Assembly (NCBI GenBank): GCA_043826435.1
Contig: JBDRQF010000010.1
Span: forward strand, 1,818 to 65,817
Direction of reading: 5' to 3'
Length of the DNA: 64,000 nucleotides
Origin: Elusimicrobiota bacterium
GTDB taxonomy: Bacteria; Elusimicrobiota; Endomicrobiia; CG1-02-37-114; JAHJSO01
The notes beneath the pieces are model-generated. The model was not told the origin of the DNA. It saw nothing but the letters and a program-made list of their open reading frames with translations, and made no database searches. Positions 20,707 through 26,791 of the stretch are shown here, piece by piece (the first letter of the stretch is position 1; each line of letters starts with the position of its first letter). Position numbers and translations under genes: made by a program.

Positions 20707-20735
20707 TTGACAAATCTTATTTATTTTTATACAAT
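20707..20735 (+). promoter_or_regulatory. Sigma70 promoter of the transcarbamylase operon
   Basis: TTGACA-17 bp-TACAAT, about 98 nt upstream of ATG 20833. Confidence 0.7.
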
Positions 20736-20832: not shown

Positions 20833-21909
20833 ATGAGGTCAAACAAATTTTACGGCAGGGACTGGATTGATGCGGAACTGGATTTTACGAAAGAGGAATG
20901 GGAAGCCCTCATTGATGTGGGGCTTGAATTAAAAAGAAGGTATGCGATGAATGAAGACCATTCACACATCCTGAAGGGCAAAACCCTCTTTACGATGTTC
21001 TTCAACCAGTCGTTAAGGACAAGGTGCACCTTCGCGGCAGGGATACAGCAATTAGGCGGTTTCCATGTGGATTTAGAACCGGGGAAAACGTACACCCCTG
21101 CAAGGAAGGGGTTTGAGATCCCCTATAAGACCGAACGAATCATAGATGTCGCGCAGATGCTTTCCCGTGTAGGCGACGCGATAGCCATAAGGGCATACGG
21201 TGAGGCGGGACACTGGATTTACGGGTTCACCAATGCAATGATAAAGGAGTTTGCGCAGTATGCAGACATCCCTTTAATCAACATGGAGTGCGACAAGTTC
21301 CACCCGACGCAGGCCCTTGCCGACATGCTAACGGTAAAGGAAAAATTCGGCGGGTTCAGGAAAGTGAAATTCGTAATGTCATGGGCTTATTCGGGCTCAA
21401 CCCACAAGCCCTACGCAGTGCCTCAAAGTTTGGTGCTTGCGCCCACAAAATTAGGGATGGACGTCGTTTTCGCAAGGCCGAAGGGCTTTGAGCTTGACCC
21501 TGAGGTTATCAAAAAATGCAAGGAGTTCGCGGCACAGAACGGCAGTTCATTTGAAGAGACGGACAGCATGGAAGATGCATTCAAAAATGCCGATGTGGTA
21601 TATCCCAAGTGCTGGGGAGCTGGCGATTATTTCGCCCAGGTTGATGCCTCAGGCAAGAAGGTTAAAAACGAAGACCTTGACGGGATGAAAGTCCTTTTTG
21701 ACAAAAACAAACACTGGATATGCGACTCCAAAAAGATGAAACTCATTAAGCCATCGGGCATATACATGCACTGCCTGCCAGCAGACAGGGACATGGAAGT
21801 TACCGACGATGTTATAGACGGTCCGCAGTCGGTAGTGTTTGACGAGGCGGAAAACCGCCTGCATGCCCACAAGTCCATAATGGCAATGACAATGGGCGGG
21901 CGTCTATAA
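20833..21909 (+). CDS. Knotted-type transcarbamylase paralog 1 (YgeW/AOTCase-like)
   Basis: FFNQSLRTR, HPTQ, MSWAYSGSTHKPYAVPQS, VVYPKCWGA (no DxxxSMG loop), HCLP, EAENR; RBS AAGGAGG. Confidence 0.88.
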   Translation: MRSNKFYGRDWIDAELDFTKEEWEALIDVGLELKRRYAMNEDHSHILKGKTLFTMFFNQSLRTRCTFAAGIQQLGGFHVDLEPGKTYTPARKGFEIPYKTERIIDVAQMLSRVGDAIAIRAYGEAGHWIYGFTNAMIKEFAQYADIPLINMECDKFHPTQALADMLTVKEKFGGFRKVKFVMSWAYSGSTHKPYAVPQSLVLAPTKLGMDVVFARPKGFELDPEVIKKCKEFAAQNGSSFEETDSMEDAFKNADVVYPKCWGAGDYFAQVDASGKKVKNEDLDGMKVLFDKNKHWICDSKKMKLIKPSGIYMHCLPADRDMEVTDDVIDGPQSVVFDEAENRLHAHKSIMAMTMGGRL

Positions 21910-21933
21910 GAGATACCAAGGAGGCATGCTACT

Positions 21934-22998
21934 ATGGCAAAAAAATCAACACGAAAAAATACACAAAAAACCAAAAAATCAACCCTTTTCGGGAAAGACC
22001 TGATCTGCACCCAGGACTGGTCAATGGACGAACTTGTCAGGACGGTTGAACTTGCAGAAGACATGCAAAAGAAACGCTATTCTCCGAAATACACCGACCT
22101 GCTGGCAAACAGGACTTTCTTTATGTTTTTCTTTAACCCATCCGTCAGAACACGGCAGTCGTTTGAATGCGCCGCAACCGAACTCGGCGGGCATGCCCAG
22201 TTCCTGACCCCTGAAGGCATGCGTCTGAAAGGCGAGAAAACGGCAGGTGAAACAGTTGAAGACGCAGCGAAAGTTATGGCAAGGTACGCTTCGGGCATAG
22301 GTATAAGGATTCTTGAAGACAAGGTTAAGTATTACGGGCAGGGGAATGAACTCCTCAGGGAATATGCCAAATGGTCTAACATACCCATAATAAACATGGC
22401 GGACGACAAATTCCACCCGTGCCAGGGCCTTGCCGATATCATGGGCCTGCGTAAACATATAGGGAAAAACCTGAAGGGTAAAAAACTGCTCCTCTACTGG
22501 GGGCACGGCGCGCTTGCCCGCAGCTGGTGTTCCGTGCAGGAAGCCGCACTCCTGTATTCAAGGTTCGGGATGGACGTTACAATCGCCTCGCCAGAAGGGT
22601 ATAACCTTGACCCTGAGGTTATTGAGCAGACAAAAAAGAACTGTTCTCAGAACGGGCAGAAGTTTGAAATCGTCAACGACCCGGTTGAGGGATACAAGGG
22701 AGCGCATGTCGTTTATTCCAGGAACTGGATGAGCCCCAACGCCTATGCAGGGAACGTCCTTAACAAACCGGCTGAAATAGAAAAGGCGTTGAAATATACC
22801 GACTGGATATGCGACGAGCAAAAAATGAGTCATACCGACAACGGGCTGTTTATCCACCCGATGCCGGTTGACCGGGGACACGAGGTAAGCGACGAAGTGG
22901 CTTCCGGTCCCAGGTCAATAATGGTTGATGTCGCGGAAAACCGCCTGCACGTCCAGAAGGCGATAATGGCATTGACGATGTCGGAAAAAATCAAATAA
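21934..22998 (+). CDS. Knotted-type transcarbamylase paralog 2 (divergent)
   Basis: FFNPSVRTR, HPCQ, LYWGHGALARSWCSVQE, VYSRNWMS, HPMP in place of HCLP, AENRLH. Confidence 0.87.
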   Translation: MAKKSTRKNTQKTKKSTLFGKDLICTQDWSMDELVRTVELAEDMQKKRYSPKYTDLLANRTFFMFFFNPSVRTRQSFECAATELGGHAQFLTPEGMRLKGEKTAGETVEDAAKVMARYASGIGIRILEDKVKYYGQGNELLREYAKWSNIPIINMADDKFHPCQGLADIMGLRKHIGKNLKGKKLLLYWGHGALARSWCSVQEAALLYSRFGMDVTIASPEGYNLDPEVIEQTKKNCSQNGQKFEIVNDPVEGYKGAHVVYSRNWMSPNAYAGNVLNKPAEIEKALKYTDWICDEQKMSHTDNGLFIHPMPVDRGHEVSDEVASGPRSIMVDVAENRLHVQKAIMALTMSEKIK

Positions 22999-23015
22999 AA
23001 AAGGGGAATATAACA

Positions 23016-23960
23016 ATGACAAAACAGGTGGCGGTAGTTGCCGTCGGCGGAAATTCGCTGATTAAAGACAACAAGCACCAGTCGGTGCAGGACCAGTACC
23101 TTGCTGCCCGCGAGACAATGCAGCACATCTCAAAAATGATACAGAAGGGATGGGATGTGGTAATAACCCACGGGAACGGCCCGCAGGTGGGGTTCATCCT
23201 TGCGAGATCGGAATACTCCAGGGGGATTATGCATGAGATACCGCTGGATTCATGCGGCGCCGACACCCAGGGAGCCATCGGCTATAATTTCCAGATGGCA
23301 TTGGGTAATGAGTTTAAAAAACTCGGAATAAAAAAAACTGTTGCATCCGTGATTACGCAGACAGTGGTTGATAAGGACGACCCTTCATTCAAAAAGCCCA
23401 CAAAACCCATCGGCCAGTTCTACAATGAAGAAGAAGCCCTCCGCAGGAAAGATAAAGACGGCTGGGACATTATGGAGGATGCGGGCAGGGGCTGGAGGAG
23501 AGTCGTTGCGTCGCCTGCGCCTCTTGAAATAGTTGAACTGGATGCAATAAAATCGCTGATACAGGCAGGGGTCGTAGTGGTCGCAGTAGGAGGCGGGGGG
23601 ATACCCGTAATCCGCCAGGACGACGGGATGTTAAAAGGGACTGCTGCCGTTATTGACAAGGACTTTGCCTCAAGTTTGCTTGCTACTCTTATTGTGGCGG
23701 ATGTTTTTATTATATCCACCGCGGTGGAAAAGGTTTATCTGAATTTCGGTAAACCGGACCAGAAAGCGGTTGACAAAATGACGCTGTCTGAGGCGAAAAA
23801 ATATGTTGAAGAGGGACATTTCAAACCGGGTTCAATGCTTCCCAAAATGAAGGCGATAATTTCATTCCTGGAAAATGGCGGGCAAACGGCGATAATAACC
23901 GACCCCCAACACATTGAACTTGCCCTGGACGGTAAAACAGGGACTCACATCACAAAATGA
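23016..23960 (+). CDS. arcC: Carbamate kinase
   Basis: AVGGNSL, THGNGPQVG, PTKPIG, GRGWRRVVASP, GGGGIPV, VIDKD, GSMLPK. Confidence 0.96.
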   Translation: MTKQVAVVAVGGNSLIKDNKHQSVQDQYLAARETMQHISKMIQKGWDVVITHGNGPQVGFILARSEYSRGIMHEIPLDSCGADTQGAIGYNFQMALGNEFKKLGIKKTVASVITQTVVDKDDPSFKKPTKPIGQFYNEEEALRRKDKDGWDIMEDAGRGWRRVVASPAPLEIVELDAIKSLIQAGVVVVAVGGGGIPVIRQDDGMLKGTAAVIDKDFASSLLATLIVADVFIISTAVEKVYLNFGKPDQKAVDKMTLSEAKKYVEEGHFKPGSMLPKMKAIISFLENGGQTAIITDPQHIELALDGKTGTHITK

Positions 23961-25237
23961 ATTATATCGCGGGCTTAAAATGCGTATCATGCGGCAGGGA
24001 ATTATCCCATGAAGAAGCGAAGTATATCTGCCCGTCCTGCGGCGGGAACCTGGACGTCGTTTATGACTATTCACGCCTGAAGAAAAAAATAACCAGGGCC
24101 GGGCTTAAAAAAAACACCGACCTCTCAATGTGGAGGTATTCTTTCCTGCTGCCCCTCGTTGAATCGAAAAAGGCAAGAATACCGTCCCTTACCGTGGGCT
24201 GGACGCCTCTGTCCAAAGCGTCTGCCCTTGGCGACAAATTAGGGCTCCAGAATCTCTATTTCAAGGACGACACGAAAACTCCGTCCGCTTCATTCAAAGA
24301 CAGAGCGAGCGCTCTCGTTGCAGTAAAAGGCCAGGAAGTCGGCGCCAAAACCTACACCACTGCTTCTACGGGTAATGCGGGGTGCGCCCTTGCGTGCATG
24401 TGCGCAAACCTACGGTTGCCGTGCACAATATTCGTCCCTGAAACAGCCCCGAAAGCGAAAATAGCCCAGTTGTTGATTTTCGGCTCAAGGGTCATAGCGG
24501 TGCGGGGGACATATGACGAGGCATTTGATTTGTCCGTCCGGGCAGCGGAGGAATTCGGGTGGTATTGCAGGTCAACAGGATACAACCCTTACACCAGGGA
24601 GGGGAAAAAAACCGCCGCTTTTGAAATCGCCGAACAACTAAAGTGGAAAACCCCTGACAAGGTACTTGTACCTGTCGGCGACGGGAATATAATATCAGGC
24701 ATCTGGAAGGGATTCTCCGACCTGTATGATATTGGGCTCATAGACAAACTGCCGCAGGTCATAGGCGTCCAATCCAACAAGAGCAATGCGATTTCCCTGG
24801 CGGTAAAGAAATACGAAAAGGAAAAATATTCGGTCAGGAAAAAGACCGGTCCCGGGCGCAAAAAGATTGAAATTGAACCTGTCCACGCTACAACCATTGC
24901 TGACTCCATCTCGGTGGACTTACCGCGTGACGGTGTCGCCGCGGTCATGGCGGTTGTCAATTCGGGTGGTTTCATGATAGAGGTAAGCGACGAAGAGATA
25001 CTTTCCGCAATAAAGGAAATCGCCTGCATAGAGGGCATTTTCAGCGAACCGGCAGGGGCTGCAAGTTACGCAGGGCTGAAGAAACTTCTTGGAATCAGCA
25101 AACTTAAAACCAGGGACACCATCGTCTGCCTTATCACGGGGAACGGTCTCAAGGACATAAACTCCGCAATGAAGGTCGCGGGCGAACCGCTTGTAATTGA
25201 ACCTTCGTTGCAGGAACTTAAAAAAGTAATATCATGA
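23957..25237 (+). CDS. Threonine-synthase-like PLP fold-type II enzyme
   Basis: N-terminal CxxC/CxxC, PSASFKDR (PLP Lys), ASTGNAG, EGKKT, VPVGDGNI, ITGNGLKD. Confidence 0.88.
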   Translation: MNYIAGLKCVSCGRELSHEEAKYICPSCGGNLDVVYDYSRLKKKITRAGLKKNTDLSMWRYSFLLPLVESKKARIPSLTVGWTPLSKASALGDKLGLQNLYFKDDTKTPSASFKDRASALVAVKGQEVGAKTYTTASTGNAGCALACMCANLRLPCTIFVPETAPKAKIAQLLIFGSRVIAVRGTYDEAFDLSVRAAEEFGWYCRSTGYNPYTREGKKTAAFEIAEQLKWKTPDKVLVPVGDGNIISGIWKGFSDLYDIGLIDKLPQVIGVQSNKSNAISLAVKKYEKEKYSVRKKTGPGRKKIEIEPVHATTIADSISVDLPRDGVAAVMAVVNSGGFMIEVSDEEILSAIKEIACIEGIFSEPAGAASYAGLKKLLGISKLKTRDTIVCLITGNGLKDINSAMKVAGEPLVIEPSLQELKKVIS

Positions 25238-26175
25238 AAAACACAAAACATTTAATTTCGGTAACCGACTTAACCGCCGGGGAGATGCAGGAGGTCTTTT
25301 CCCTTACGCACTCCGTAAAATCGGAAAGGGAAAAGTTTTACAATGCCCTTGCCCACAGGACTCTTGCAATGATTTTCCAGAAACCGTCCACCCGCACAAG
25401 GGTCTCTTTTGAAACGGGCATGACTCAATTGGGCGGCCATGCAATATTTTTAAGCAACCAGGAACTCCAACTCAAGAGGGGTGAAACCATCGCCGACACG
25501 TCCAGGACGCTCTCCAGGTACGTTGATGCAATAATGATAAGGTCAAACAACCACAGGGACGTCCTTGAACTTGCAGGGACTTCCTCCGTCCCCGTAATAA
25601 ACGGGCTGAGCGACATTGAACACCCCTGCCAGGTGCTGGGCGACATTTACACCATACTTGAAAAAAAATCCACCAAAGACCTTTCTCATCTTAAAACAAC
25701 CTTTATCGGTGACGGAAACAACGTTTCAAACTCCCTGATGCTCGCTTCCGCCGTACTGGGCATGCATTTTGTCCTCTGCACGCCGGAGGGTTATGAACCC
25801 CCCAAAGGAATTATTGAAAAGAGCATTGAGATAGCCCGCAGGACCGGTGCAAAAATAGAAATTCTTTCCTCACCCGTGAAAGCCGTTGACGGGTCCGATA
25901 TAATATATACGGACGTGTGGACTTCCATGGGGAAGGAAGAAGAACAATCAAAAAGGAAAGAGATATTCACGCCTTACCAGGTAAACAGCGGGTTATTGTC
26001 CCGGGCTAACCCTTCGGCAATAGTGATGCACTGCCTTCCTGCAAGGAGGGGAGAGGAAATTACCGACGAGGTTATGGACGGCCCGAGTTCCGTCGTATTT
26101 GACCAGGCGGAAAACCGGATGCACGTGCAGAAAGCAATCCTCCTGTATCTGCTGAAAGAAACCTGCAATATTTAG
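25234..26175 (+). CDS. argF: Ornithine carbamoyltransferase (canonical)
   Basis: FQKPSTRTR, HPCQ, GDGNNV, DVWTSMG, HCLP. Confidence 0.95.
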   Translation: MKNTKHLISVTDLTAGEMQEVFSLTHSVKSEREKFYNALAHRTLAMIFQKPSTRTRVSFETGMTQLGGHAIFLSNQELQLKRGETIADTSRTLSRYVDAIMIRSNNHRDVLELAGTSSVPVINGLSDIEHPCQVLGDIYTILEKKSTKDLSHLKTTFIGDGNNVSNSLMLASAVLGMHFVLCTPEGYEPPKGIIEKSIEIARRTGAKIEILSSPVKAVDGSDIIYTDVWTSMGKEEEQSKRKEIFTPYQVNSGLLSRANPSAIVMHCLPARRGEEITDEVMDGPSSVVFDQAENRMHVQKAILLYLLKETCNI

Positions 26176-26269: not shown

Positions 26270-26791
26270 ATGATTAAACAATTAGGGGGGATAAAACCAC
26301 AGGTTGACGTGACTGCCTACGTACATAGTTCGGCTGAAATCATAGGCCGGGTAAAGATTGCAAGGGACGCATCCGTGTGGCCCGGGGCAGTGCTGCGCGG
26401 GGACGTGGAAGAAATAACCATCGGAGAGGGCAGCAACATCCAGGACAACGCCGTCGTGCATACAAACTTTTCATGCCCCGCGGTCATCGGTAAAATGGTA
26501 GTGGTCGGGCACGGCGCCATACTACATGGGTGCAGGATCGGCGACAACTGTCTTATAGGTATGGGCGCGATAATAATGGACGGGGCAGTCATAGGGAATA
26601 ACTGCGTAATCGGGGCGGGTAGTGTGGTGGTTGAGAAAACCATAGTGCCCCAGGGTTCTCTTTTCCTTGGTTCGCCCGCGAGGGCAGTCCGCAAACTCAC
26701 ACCGGAAGAAATCCGCATGATACAGGAAGGCGCCGGACACTACATCCAAAAAATAAAAGAATACAAAAGAGGGCTGAGGAGCCCCTTATAG
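26270..26791 (+). CDS. Gamma carbonic anhydrase family protein (YrdA/CaiE-like)
   Basis: AVLRGD, SNIQDN, GHGAILHGC hexapeptide motifs. Confidence 0.92.
   Translation: MIKQLGGIKPQVDVTAYVHSSAEIIGRVKIARDASVWPGAVLRGDVEEITIGEGSNIQDNAVVHTNFSCPAVIGKMVVVGHGAILHGCRIGDNCLIGMGAIIMDGAVIGNNCVIGAGSVVVEKTIVPQGSLFLGSPARAVRKLTPEEIRMIQEGAGHYIQKIKEYKRGLRSPL

Follow-up and report, generated by a model that had tools for sequence, protein, structure and literature searches.

A five-gene operon with two unnamed transcarbamylase families in an Elusimicrobiota bacterium, a candidate module of reductive urate degradation

The stretch of DNA analysed here, referred to as the window, comprises 64,000 nucleotides of an Elusimicrobiota bacterium (assembly GCA_043826435.1, contig JBDRQF010000010.1, positions 1,818 to 65,817). 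The open reading frame (ORF) list and the sequence itself place five genes on its forward strand, in the order TC1, TC2, arcC, a threonine-synthase-like (ThrC-like) gene for a pyridoxal phosphate (PLP) enzyme, and argF (Table 1). On balance, this operon probably encodes the lower section, in which energy is conserved, of a variant reductive (2,8-dioxopurine) pathway for the degradation of uric acid and purines. Its tie to the reductive purine and urate pathway is strongly supported. The order of the genes, their family placement, their co-occurrence with other genes across genomes and the conservation of active-site motifs were established directly. The original prediction, made from the DNA letters, had proposed a catabolic, ATP-yielding module related to this pathway; purine genes indeed co-occur with the operon, and the ATP yield is proposed by analogy.

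Two reports (10.1101/2025.04.24.650524; PMC12507026) describe the reductive uricolytic cluster ygeW-ygeX-ygeY-hyuA-yqeA of Escherichia coli and Clostridium, accompanied by ygfK, ssnA and xdhD, and give the biochemistry of YgeW, YgeY, YgeX and YqeA. Its elucidation dates from as recently as 2025, and a commentary on the pathway (PMC12990295) treats the order of the two ureido cleavages as still open. The neighbourhood survey in section 9 of PMC12507026 counted partners at the level of Pfam families, with YgeW as PF00185 and YgeX as PF00291. A literature search yielded no account of non-YgeW transcarbamylases occurring as a pair, nor of YgeX being replaced by ThrC-like or CysK-like proteins, although supplements might list variants. 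The pathway is already known; its twin-transcarbamylase version appears to be new.

Association with purine degradation genes

The host, a groundwater bacterium, has a genome of 1.83 Mb in 61 contigs that is 96.7% complete. It encodes SsnA (537 bits for a cut-off of 444) and a D-hydantoinase (400 for a cut-off of 393), the gene of which is cut by the end of the 2.4-kb contig C59 and is followed by one for a class-III aminotransferase. Three Xdh-family molybdoenzyme paralogs with Fe-S and FAD subunits are present, together with an 828-residue GltD+PreA-like (PreT/PreA-like) reductase, an 8-oxoguanine-deaminase-type hydrolase, MocA and XdhC. A genome-wide search revealed only three transcarbamylase genes, all of them inside the operon. 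YgeW was not found in the host genome, and neither was YgeY, the sole M20 peptidase being of the CpsA/amidohydrolase type and encoded beside thiL. A YgeX-type lyase was likewise not found in this genome, where the best match scores 46.5 bits for a cut-off of 276.

The three Xdh paralogs and the PreT/PreA-like reductase (contig C44:19000-38000, L091) are flanked by a tungstate-type ATP-binding cassette transporter with TupA-like and WtpC-like components, raising the question of tungsten use by one of the Xdh paralogs. An amidohydrolase with a PF07969 match on the same contig was considered as a UacY-like hydrolase and rejected, as it scores as a cytosine-deaminase-type protein.

In a sample of 151 genomes of the phylum, host included, SsnA is above its cut-off in 24. 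Matches to transcarbamylases other than ornithine carbamoyltransferase (E ≤ 1e-43) occur in exactly these 24 genomes, plus one (G150) without SsnA. Judged by the pattern of matches, the SsnA-positive genomes divide into six with TC1 and TC2, eleven with a third unnamed family of 337 residues, TC3, and seven with YgeW. Six of the seven YgeW-type loci were checked by BLAST, leaving out G125, and are 63-66% identical to E. coli YgeW; an NCBIfam scan of proteins from the phylum contained two YgeW proteins (673-686 bits) and four TC3 proteins, the latter below all cut-offs. TC3 groups with YgeW in the phylogenetic tree described below. In SsnA-positive genomes, it is found in the order TC3-ArcC-ThrC-like or adjoining YgeY, and elsewhere the order is YgeY-YgeW-ArcC-ThrC-like. 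Examples of TC3 are L105:8986-9996, L106:8998-10008, L113, L115 and L116, from genomes G095, G072, G128, G054 and G060.

Genome G017 has the order PALP489-YgeY-YgeY-YgeW-ArcC-ThrC-like-ArgF, where PALP489 is a CysK-like PLP protein family discussed below and the last three proteins are 78%, 63% and 54% identical to those of the window. This is the window's operon with YgeY-YgeW in the place of TC1-TC2, a natural swap.

A scan of one genome per species gave 450 stretches with relatives of TC1; the 80 best loci were analysed, counting neighbours on all ORFs. Their sources are unclassified bacteria, Cloacimonadota, Elusimicrobiota, WOR-3, Chloroflexota, Aminicenantes and Asgard archaea. Of the 80 loci, 51 contain TC2 (44 of the 61 that extend 2.5 kb or more downstream), which is adjacent to TC1 in most loci, and 42 contain ArcC (35 of the 56 that extend 4 kb or more downstream). 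A ThrC-like gene is found in 21 loci, a CysK-like PLP gene in 15 and YgeY in 10, while at least one of SsnA, HyuA, YgfK, Xdh and YgeY occurs in 24. No YgeW-like or YgeX-like gene was found within the 80 loci. Representatives of the neighbour clusters exceed the NCBIfam cut-offs for YgfK (1420 bits for 835), SsnA (507 for 444), hydantoinase (495 for 393) and YgeY (460 for 321). Beyond the host, TC1-TC2-ArcC is clustered with ygfK, ssnA, hyuA, ygeY and xdh. The original prediction had expected purine-ring-opening genes to accompany the module, and they do so both in the host genome and beside TC1 and TC2 in other phyla.

Whole-genome searches covered 50 of the 80 genomes, namely those of the 32 best-ranked loci and 18 spread over the rest. 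Orthologs of TC2 (57-78% identity) are present in 48 of the 50. SsnA is above its cut-off in 29 and reaches at least 340 bits in 45. A separate class of genomes with TC1 alone was considered and dropped, as TC2 was found elsewhere in nearly all such genomes.

Two further groups of loci may be mentioned. Five loci from Anaerolineae (L046, L050, L052, L056 and L062) contain TC1 followed by a HutI-type imidazolonepropionase (443 bits for a cut-off of 298), with no TC2 at that site; the HutI-type protein may be an alternative ring-opening enzyme in Chloroflexota. TC1 and TC2 are also found in metagenome-assembled genomes (MAGs) of the Asgard archaeal groups Thor-, Heimdall- and Promethearchaeota (L067, L071, L075, L081 and L084), where the neighbours are a penicillin-amidase-family gene, an ODP/flavodoxin protein and a family-5 solute-binding protein.

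The two transcarbamylases

TC1 contains the motifs SLRTR, HPTQ, MSWAYSGSTHKPYAVPQ, YPKCW and HCLP, and TC2 contains SVRTR and HPCQ, with HPMP where the others have HCLP. The DxxxSMG motif is absent from both sequences and present in ArgF, so that the reading of the SxRTR, HPxQ and DxxxSMG motifs in the original prediction holds for all three proteins. The same is true of the proposed likeness of TC1 to E. coli YgeW, which is real: the two are 33% identical overall, MSWAYSGSTHKPYAVPQ aligns with MTWAYSPSYGKPLSVPQ of YgeW and VVYPKCW with IVYPKSW, and YMHCLPAD is identical in both.

Neither protein reaches any curated transcarbamylase cut-off. The best hidden Markov model (HMM) for both is that of N-acetylornithine transcarbamylase (AOTCase; NF003384), with 260.2 bits for TC1 and 249.2 for TC2 against a cut-off of 288. 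The YgeW models score much lower (NF005538: 185.5 and 136.3 against 453; TIGR03316: 176.8 and 126.2 against 500). For comparison, true YgeW proteins of relatives score 673-686 bits and a true AOTCase from the phylum scores 402. The nearest solved structure to TC1 and TC2 is the AOTCase of Xanthomonas campestris (PDB 3KZC; about 35% identity over the full length), followed by the ornithine carbamoyltransferase (OTCase) of Pyrococcus furiosus and by YgeW. Source names show that members of both families are labelled in databases as ornithine or N-acetylornithine carbamoyltransferases. One TC1 ortholog from Chloroflexota (L083:9001-10044, from a MAG labelled Ktedonobacter) passes the AOTCase cut-off with 301 bits and is a likely source of misannotation.

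A maximum-likelihood tree was calculated from 44 sequences, including 18 TC1, 13 TC2, 6 TC3 and 3 YgeW proteins (that of E. coli among them), one verified AOTCase and two OTCases, with E. coli PyrB as the outgroup. TC1 and TC2 form separate clades with support values of 100/99 and 100/100, respectively. YgeW and TC3 group together (99/97) and are sister to TC1 (89/87). The AOTCase and the OTCases fall outside the TC1 and TC2 clades, a placement weakened by the use of a single AOTCase reference on a long branch, several other reference branches also being long. The original prediction had named a position inside the AOTCase clade as evidence against it; both proteins lie outside this single reference and below the AOTCase cut-off.

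The residues that line the second-substrate site of YgeW are Gln160, Ser200, Lys203 and Lys270 (PMC4581275, Table 1). At these positions TC1 has Glu, Ser, Lys and Lys, three of the four being identical, and TC2 has Ala, Leu, Ser and Arg, none being identical; TC2 also carries NMA instead of NME or NLQ. The specificity residues of AOTCase are Trp77, Glu92, Glu144, Asn185, Lys252 and Lys302 (PMC4581275). Their counterparts are Thr, Glu, Glu, Lys, Lys and Glu in TC1 and Met, Val, Ala, Ser, Arg and Glu in TC2, the fourth position being approximate in both cases. Alignments of 49 and 30 orthologs reveal that the TC2 family keeps SxRTR, HPCQ and AENRLH, and also its own HPMP, MAxDK and GHGALARS. Because the features of its own second site and the carbamoyl-phosphate motifs are both conserved across orthologs, TC2 has the appearance of a working enzyme whose second site differs, and not of a decaying copy.

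In PMC4581275, the sequence criteria for knotted transcarbamylases are a proline-containing loop and an extended 120s loop. TC1 has both and is likely to be knotted, as judged from its sequence. TC2 has the extended 120s loop, and the equivalent of its proline loop is GHGALARSW, which contains no proline. In a predicted model of TC2, with a predicted local distance difference test (pLDDT) value of 92, the closest fold is that of the knotted AOTCase (template modelling scores of 0.85 and 0.90).

TC1 shares with YgeW (YTCase, PDB 3Q98 and 2YFK) the loop MxWAYSxSxxKPxxVPQ with Ser200 and Lys203, the VYPKxW motif with Lys270, the YMHCLPAD motif and a 240s region of similar length. Linkage to a carbamate kinase, with arcC starting 17 bases past TC2, and co-occurrence of TC1 and TC2 with SsnA and other pathway genes are further likenesses. 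Unlike YgeW, which has about 396 residues, additional helices at both termini and a 240s loop enlarged by two helices, TC1 lacks the extra C-terminal helix region, so that the alignment stops at YgeW residue 361 and the C-terminus resembles that of AOTCase and OTCase; its 80s loop is longer and Asp124 is not conserved. TC2 lacks Ser200, Lys203 and Lys270. AOTCase remains the best PDB sequence match of both proteins and the best fold match of the TC2 model, but the specificity residues differ and the genomic context of TC1 and TC2 is catabolic.

The resemblance to AOTCase raises the alternative of an anabolic operon, in which TC1 and TC2 would be N-acyl-ornithine transcarbamylases, ArcC would convert carbamate to carbamoyl phosphate, the ThrC-like enzyme would make threonine and ArgF citrulline. 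In line with this, AOTCase is the best HMM for both proteins and its cut-off is passed by some TC1 proteins of Chloroflexota, TC1 keeps Glu144 and Lys252 of AOTCase, the ThrC-like protein passes the threonine synthase model TIGR00260, and argF lies in the operon of a host in which no CarB was found, where an anabolic carbamate kinase would be useful. We nevertheless regard this alternative as very improbable. The two host proteins are below the AOTCase cut-off and outside its reference in the tree, and of the AOTCase specificity residues Trp77, Asn185 and Lys302 are changed in TC1 and Trp77, Glu92, Glu144, Lys252 and Lys302 in TC2. A canonical OTCase is already there, the host has two better ThrC paralogs, and the conserved partners elsewhere are catabolic purine genes and not arg genes.

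Proposed pathway and the role of TC2

The substrates, the order of cleavage, the ATP yield and the division of roles between the PLP enzymes are modelled on the pathway of E. coli and Clostridium. Xdh-family enzymes, the PreT/PreA-like reductase, SsnA and the D-hydantoinase, all encoded elsewhere in the genome, would convert purine to 2,3-diureidopropionate. TC1 would then perform the YgeW-like step, phosphorolysis of one ureido group to give carbamoyl phosphate, and TC2 would release the second ureido group in the same manner, yielding 2,3-diaminopropionate and a second carbamoyl phosphate; in E. coli, this second step is done by the hydrolase YgeY. ArcC would use the carbamoyl phosphate to make ATP from ADP, giving up to two ATP per urate instead of one. 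The C3 diamino acid would be converted to pyruvate and ammonia by the ThrC-like PLP enzyme, alone or with the CysK-like PALP489, in replacement of YgeX.

The distribution of YgeY bears on the second of these steps. Within the phylum sample, every SsnA-positive genome except that of the host has a YgeY match (23 of 24), as do 20 of the 50 TC1 genomes. When genomes with both TC1 and TC2 (twin genomes, n=54) are compared with those that have a single enzyme, YgeW or TC3 (n=18), YgeY is missing from 31 of the former and present in all of the latter. Genome G183, of the TC1-ArcC-ThrC-like lineage and with no TC2 detected, also has YgeY. These data fit an ability of TC2 to do the job of YgeY. They are given as counts, with no statistical test, because of the kinship of the genomes, the possible incompleteness of the 50 TC1 ones, the contig breaks in the host and the amidase-like gene described next.

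Several observations weigh against the pathway as drawn. YgeY is retained in 23 of the 54 twin genomes. Besides the host, the phylum sample has five twin genomes, and in four of them (G005, G010, G026 and G032) YgeY immediately precedes TC1. TC2 is therefore not simply a replacement for YgeY, and the two are not mutually exclusive. On contig C25 (2627-6349, L125), the host itself has a nitrilase-superfamily, carbamoyl-amidase-like gene (210 bits, compared with 410 for N-carbamoylputrescine amidase) two genes from that of an NCS1 permease of the nucleobase, allantoin or hydantoin type; hydrolysis of the second ureido group by the amidase-like protein is a possibility. Contig breaks interrupt two pathway genes, namely the CysK-like PLP gene at the end of C25 and the hydantoinase gene on C59, so that a YgeY gene hidden in an assembly gap is conceivable. 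The genomes are related and not independent, and the 50 locus-derived ones may be incomplete. Finally, the operon of the window sits between pilus and housekeeping genes, away from the purine genes. The original prediction that TC2 replaces YgeY is thus borne out in part: the host lacks a detectable YgeY and the gene is missing far more often from twin than from single-enzyme genomes, but many twin genomes keep it.

The retention of YgeY is also what would be expected if TC1 and TC2 jointly carried out the single YgeW step, as an obligate hetero-oligomer or with one of them as a regulatory subunit, the second ureido group being hydrolysed, by YgeY where it occurs and by another amidase in the host, and one ATP gained per urate. 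TC1 and TC2 are almost never found apart, as the 48 of 50 genomes and their adjacency in most loci attest; YgeY adjoins TC1 in the four genomes named above; the CN_hydrolase of the host is carbamoyl-amidase-like; and transcarbamylase active sites borrow residues of an adjacent subunit (PMC4581275, Table 1). Set against this, the transcarbamylases covered in that review are all homotrimers. TC2 keeps all the carbamoyl-phosphate-binding motifs and its own conserved second site, as expected if it is active, YgeY is missing from more than half of the twin genomes and from no single-enzyme genome, and G183 combines the lack of a detectable TC2 with the presence of YgeY. A joint YgeW step appears unlikely.

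A second alternative is that one of the enzymes, most likely TC2, acts on another ureide, such as the N-carbamoyl-beta-alanine formed in reductive pyrimidine degradation, and that the operon gathers the carbamoyl phosphate released in several ring-opening pathways. The second-substrate site of TC2 is unlike those of YgeW and AOTCase. The PreT/PreA-like reductase of the host is of the dihydropyrimidine dehydrogenase type and its hydantoinase of the dihydropyrimidinase type, the latter followed by the class-III aminotransferase in a context like that of a beta-alanine aminotransferase. In addition, the five Chloroflexota loci have a HutI-type imidazolonepropionase beside TC1, in the place of TC2. 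TC2 nevertheless closely follows TC1 and the clusters of SsnA, YgfK and Xdh, and we consider action on another ureide distinctly improbable.

Returning to successive phosphorolysis, a stronger version can be formulated: TC1 and TC2 would make the removal of both ureido groups from 2,3-diureidopropionate fully phosphorolytic, enzymes derived from ThrC and CysK would replace YgeX, and the operon would be the only source of carbamoyl phosphate for arginine in an organism without CarAB. We put this version forward tentatively, as possible but short of probable. The pair of TC1 and TC2 itself is spread over Elusimicrobiota, Cloacimonadota, Chloroflexota, Asgard archaea and other groups.

The PLP-dependent enzymes

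The ThrC-like protein passes the threonine synthase model TIGR00260 (189 bits for a cut-off of 167.1) and misses that of its closest equivalog, PRK08197 (278.9 for 303). It retains the PLP lysine motif SFKDR, as well as ASTGN and TGNGLKD, like the threonine synthases of known structure (PDB 2ZSJ, 2D1F, 6CGQ and 1UIM). It differs from them by an insertion of about 35 residues and by changed motifs: NPYRIEGQKT has become NPYTREGKKT, GNAGN has become GDGNI and ATAIRIGNP has become ADSISVDLP. These altered positions are partly variable within the ThrC-like family. Among the altered positions is an arginine of the canonical substrate-site motifs, which we take to bind the substrate phosphate.

The ThrC-like protein is the third ThrC paralog of the host, with better-scoring paralogs on contigs C58 (325 bits) and C37 (305 bits), one of them canonical. 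It is therefore not the only real threonine synthase of the host, which the original prediction had considered as a reason for doubt, and as a third paralog it is free for a new role. The paralog on C37 (C37:55356-58668; L092:5356-8668) is located between genes for CysK, a NirA-like sulfite/nitrite reductase and a SAMP(ThiS-like)-MoeB fusion, a context that suggests sulfur-carrier-dependent synthesis of homocysteine or cysteine.

Like YgeX, the ThrC-like protein is a fold-type II PLP enzyme in a ureide-degrading operon; unlike YgeX, it is far below the cut-off of the YgeX model (NF006058, 52.1 bits for 276). Only three of 74 transcarbamylase-bearing genomes have YgeX above this cut-off, which means that the C3 diamino acid must be processed by some other protein. 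The ThrC-like gene is linked to TCase-ArcC in many loci, and each of the 24 SsnA-positive genomes in the phylum sample carries it with an identity of 46% or higher. From its sequence, the protein is a candidate lyase for 2,3-diaminopropionate or a ureido-alanine.

PALP489, the CysK-like PLP family of 489 residues, scores 99 bits for a CysK cut-off of 351, and in a protein atlas it falls only in clusters named PLP-dependent enzyme. It is present in 24 of the 24 SsnA-positive genomes and in none of the 127 others. The host copy is located at the end of a contig (C25:24664-25539), a full-length example being L014:6057-7523, and in genomes G072, G090, G092 and G144 the gene is adjacent to the ThrC-like one. 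PALP489 is a pathway-specific enzyme of putative function, and is an equal or better candidate than the ThrC-like protein to replace YgeX.

Three findings tell against assigning the lyase step to the ThrC-like protein. Relatives of it (44-50% identity) also occur in 23 SsnA-negative genomes of the phylum, PALP489 tracks SsnA more specifically, and genome G176 combines an operon-encoded ThrC-like protein with a genuine YgeX. The role of diaminopropionate lyase, which the original prediction gave to the ThrC-like protein, is plausible but does not single this protein out, as PALP489 tracks SsnA perfectly. The two proteins might also act in sequence, for example on different stereoisomers.

ArcC, ArgF and the fate of carbamoyl phosphate

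ArcC is above the cut-offs of both carbamate kinase models (NF009007, 410.4 bits for 266; TIGR00746, 381.6 for 358.25). ArgF scores 428 bits for a cut-off of 306 and 419 for a cut-off of 281, and contains STRTR, HPCQ, DVWTSMG and HCLP. ArgG is present in the host genome, and ArgF is most likely anabolic here. CarB was not found in the host genome, and neither was PyrB, the aspartate carbamoyltransferase, at 96.7% completeness; the operon may be the sole origin of carbamoyl phosphate, and the host may lack a de novo route to pyrimidines. Because no CarB or other carbamoyl-phosphate synthetase was found, ArgF is proposed to channel some of the carbamoyl phosphate into the synthesis of citrulline and arginine.

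The presence of argF and arcC in one operon is also reminiscent of arginine deiminase or citrulline fermentation, of which the operon would be a variant with a catabolic OTCase and a carbamate kinase. The arginine deiminase family and the agmatine deiminase family were not found, either in the window, as the original prediction had noted, or in the whole host genome. With ArgG present, and TC1, TC2 and the ThrC-like gene left unexplained, a fermentation operon of this kind is scarcely credible.

Comparison with the E. coli and Clostridium cluster

With the known cluster, the operon shares the combination of a transcarbamylase with a carbamate kinase, predicted here to conserve substrate-level ATP from a ureido intermediate. 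The host holds SsnA, a D-hydantoinase and Xdh-family enzymes, and in other phyla TC1 and TC2 share clusters with ygfK, ssnA, hyuA and ygeY. Unlike the known cluster, the host has two transcarbamylases of new families for one YgeW, with no YgeW, YgeY or YgeX found in its genome, and ThrC-like and CysK-like PLP enzymes are proposed in the place of YgeX. In addition, an OTCase is encoded inside the operon, which is itself apart from the genes for the upstream part of the pathway.

Two dedicated transcarbamylases with separable specificities could reveal the order of the ureido cleavages. If the proposal is correct, the sharing of work between the two natural enzymes would show which of the ureido groups is the target of YgeW-type proteins, and the substrate-level ATP obtained per urate would be doubled. 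Uncultured anaerobes of groundwater, sediments and digesters may accordingly gain more ATP from purines. The three new transcarbamylase families, TC1, TC2 and TC3, and the two PLP families are targets for enzymology.

Operon structure and surroundings

Table 1. Features of the operon and the gene that follows it (positions in the window)
Feature	Position	Strand	Remarks
Sigma-70-like promoter, TTGACA-17-TACAAT	20707..20735	+	Upstream of TC1; 11 of 12 consensus matches
TC1, 358-residue transcarbamylase, unnamed family	20833..21909	+	Both OTCace domains; sister to YgeW
TC2, 354-residue transcarbamylase, second unnamed family	21934..22998	+	Both OTCace domains; own clade
arcC, carbamate kinase	23016..23960	+	NF009007 and TIGR00746 above cut-offs
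ThrC-like PLP fold-II enzyme	23957..25237	+	N-terminal Cys4 ribbon; Lys-rich insertion at about residues 275-311
argF, canonical ornithine carbamoyltransferase	25234..26175	+	Family score; DVWTSMG
Gamma-carbonic-anhydrase-like hexapeptide protein	26270..26791	+	NF050158, 165 bits for a cut-off of 250

TC1 and TC2 are separated by 24 bases and TC2 and arcC by 17, and the arcC/ThrC-like and ThrC-like/argF junctions each overlap by four bases. The promoter-like site ahead of TC1, identified by its match to the consensus, is the top-scoring one between 20500 and 27500, a region with 11 such sites compared with 7.5 ± 2.7 in shuffled sequences. The single promoter and the overlap of the last three genes described in the original prediction agree with these coordinates and with the best-scoring site. 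TC1 starts at the ATG at 20833, preceded by AAGGAGG. The ORF lister had chosen the TTG at 20707, which was rejected as a start, being part of the -35 hexamer of the promoter.

The gamma-carbonic-anhydrase-like gene starts 95 bases past argF, and no terminator-like site was found on the forward strand between the two. It is possibly co-transcribed with the operon, in which it would have a putative role. The rest of the window has a housekeeping character: BamA, Lpx genes, MsbA, RecG and type IV pilus genes are upstream of the operon, and the gamma-carbonic-anhydrase-like gene is followed by def, SecDF, Tgt/QueA and RuvAB. Between 48000 and 58000, the window is low in GC (0.30-0.40, compared with about 0.48 elsewhere) and encodes large tetratricopeptide-repeat/O-antigen-ligase-like and PMT_2-like proteins, a PorV-like protein and a protein of 1328 residues with a FlgD-Ig domain.

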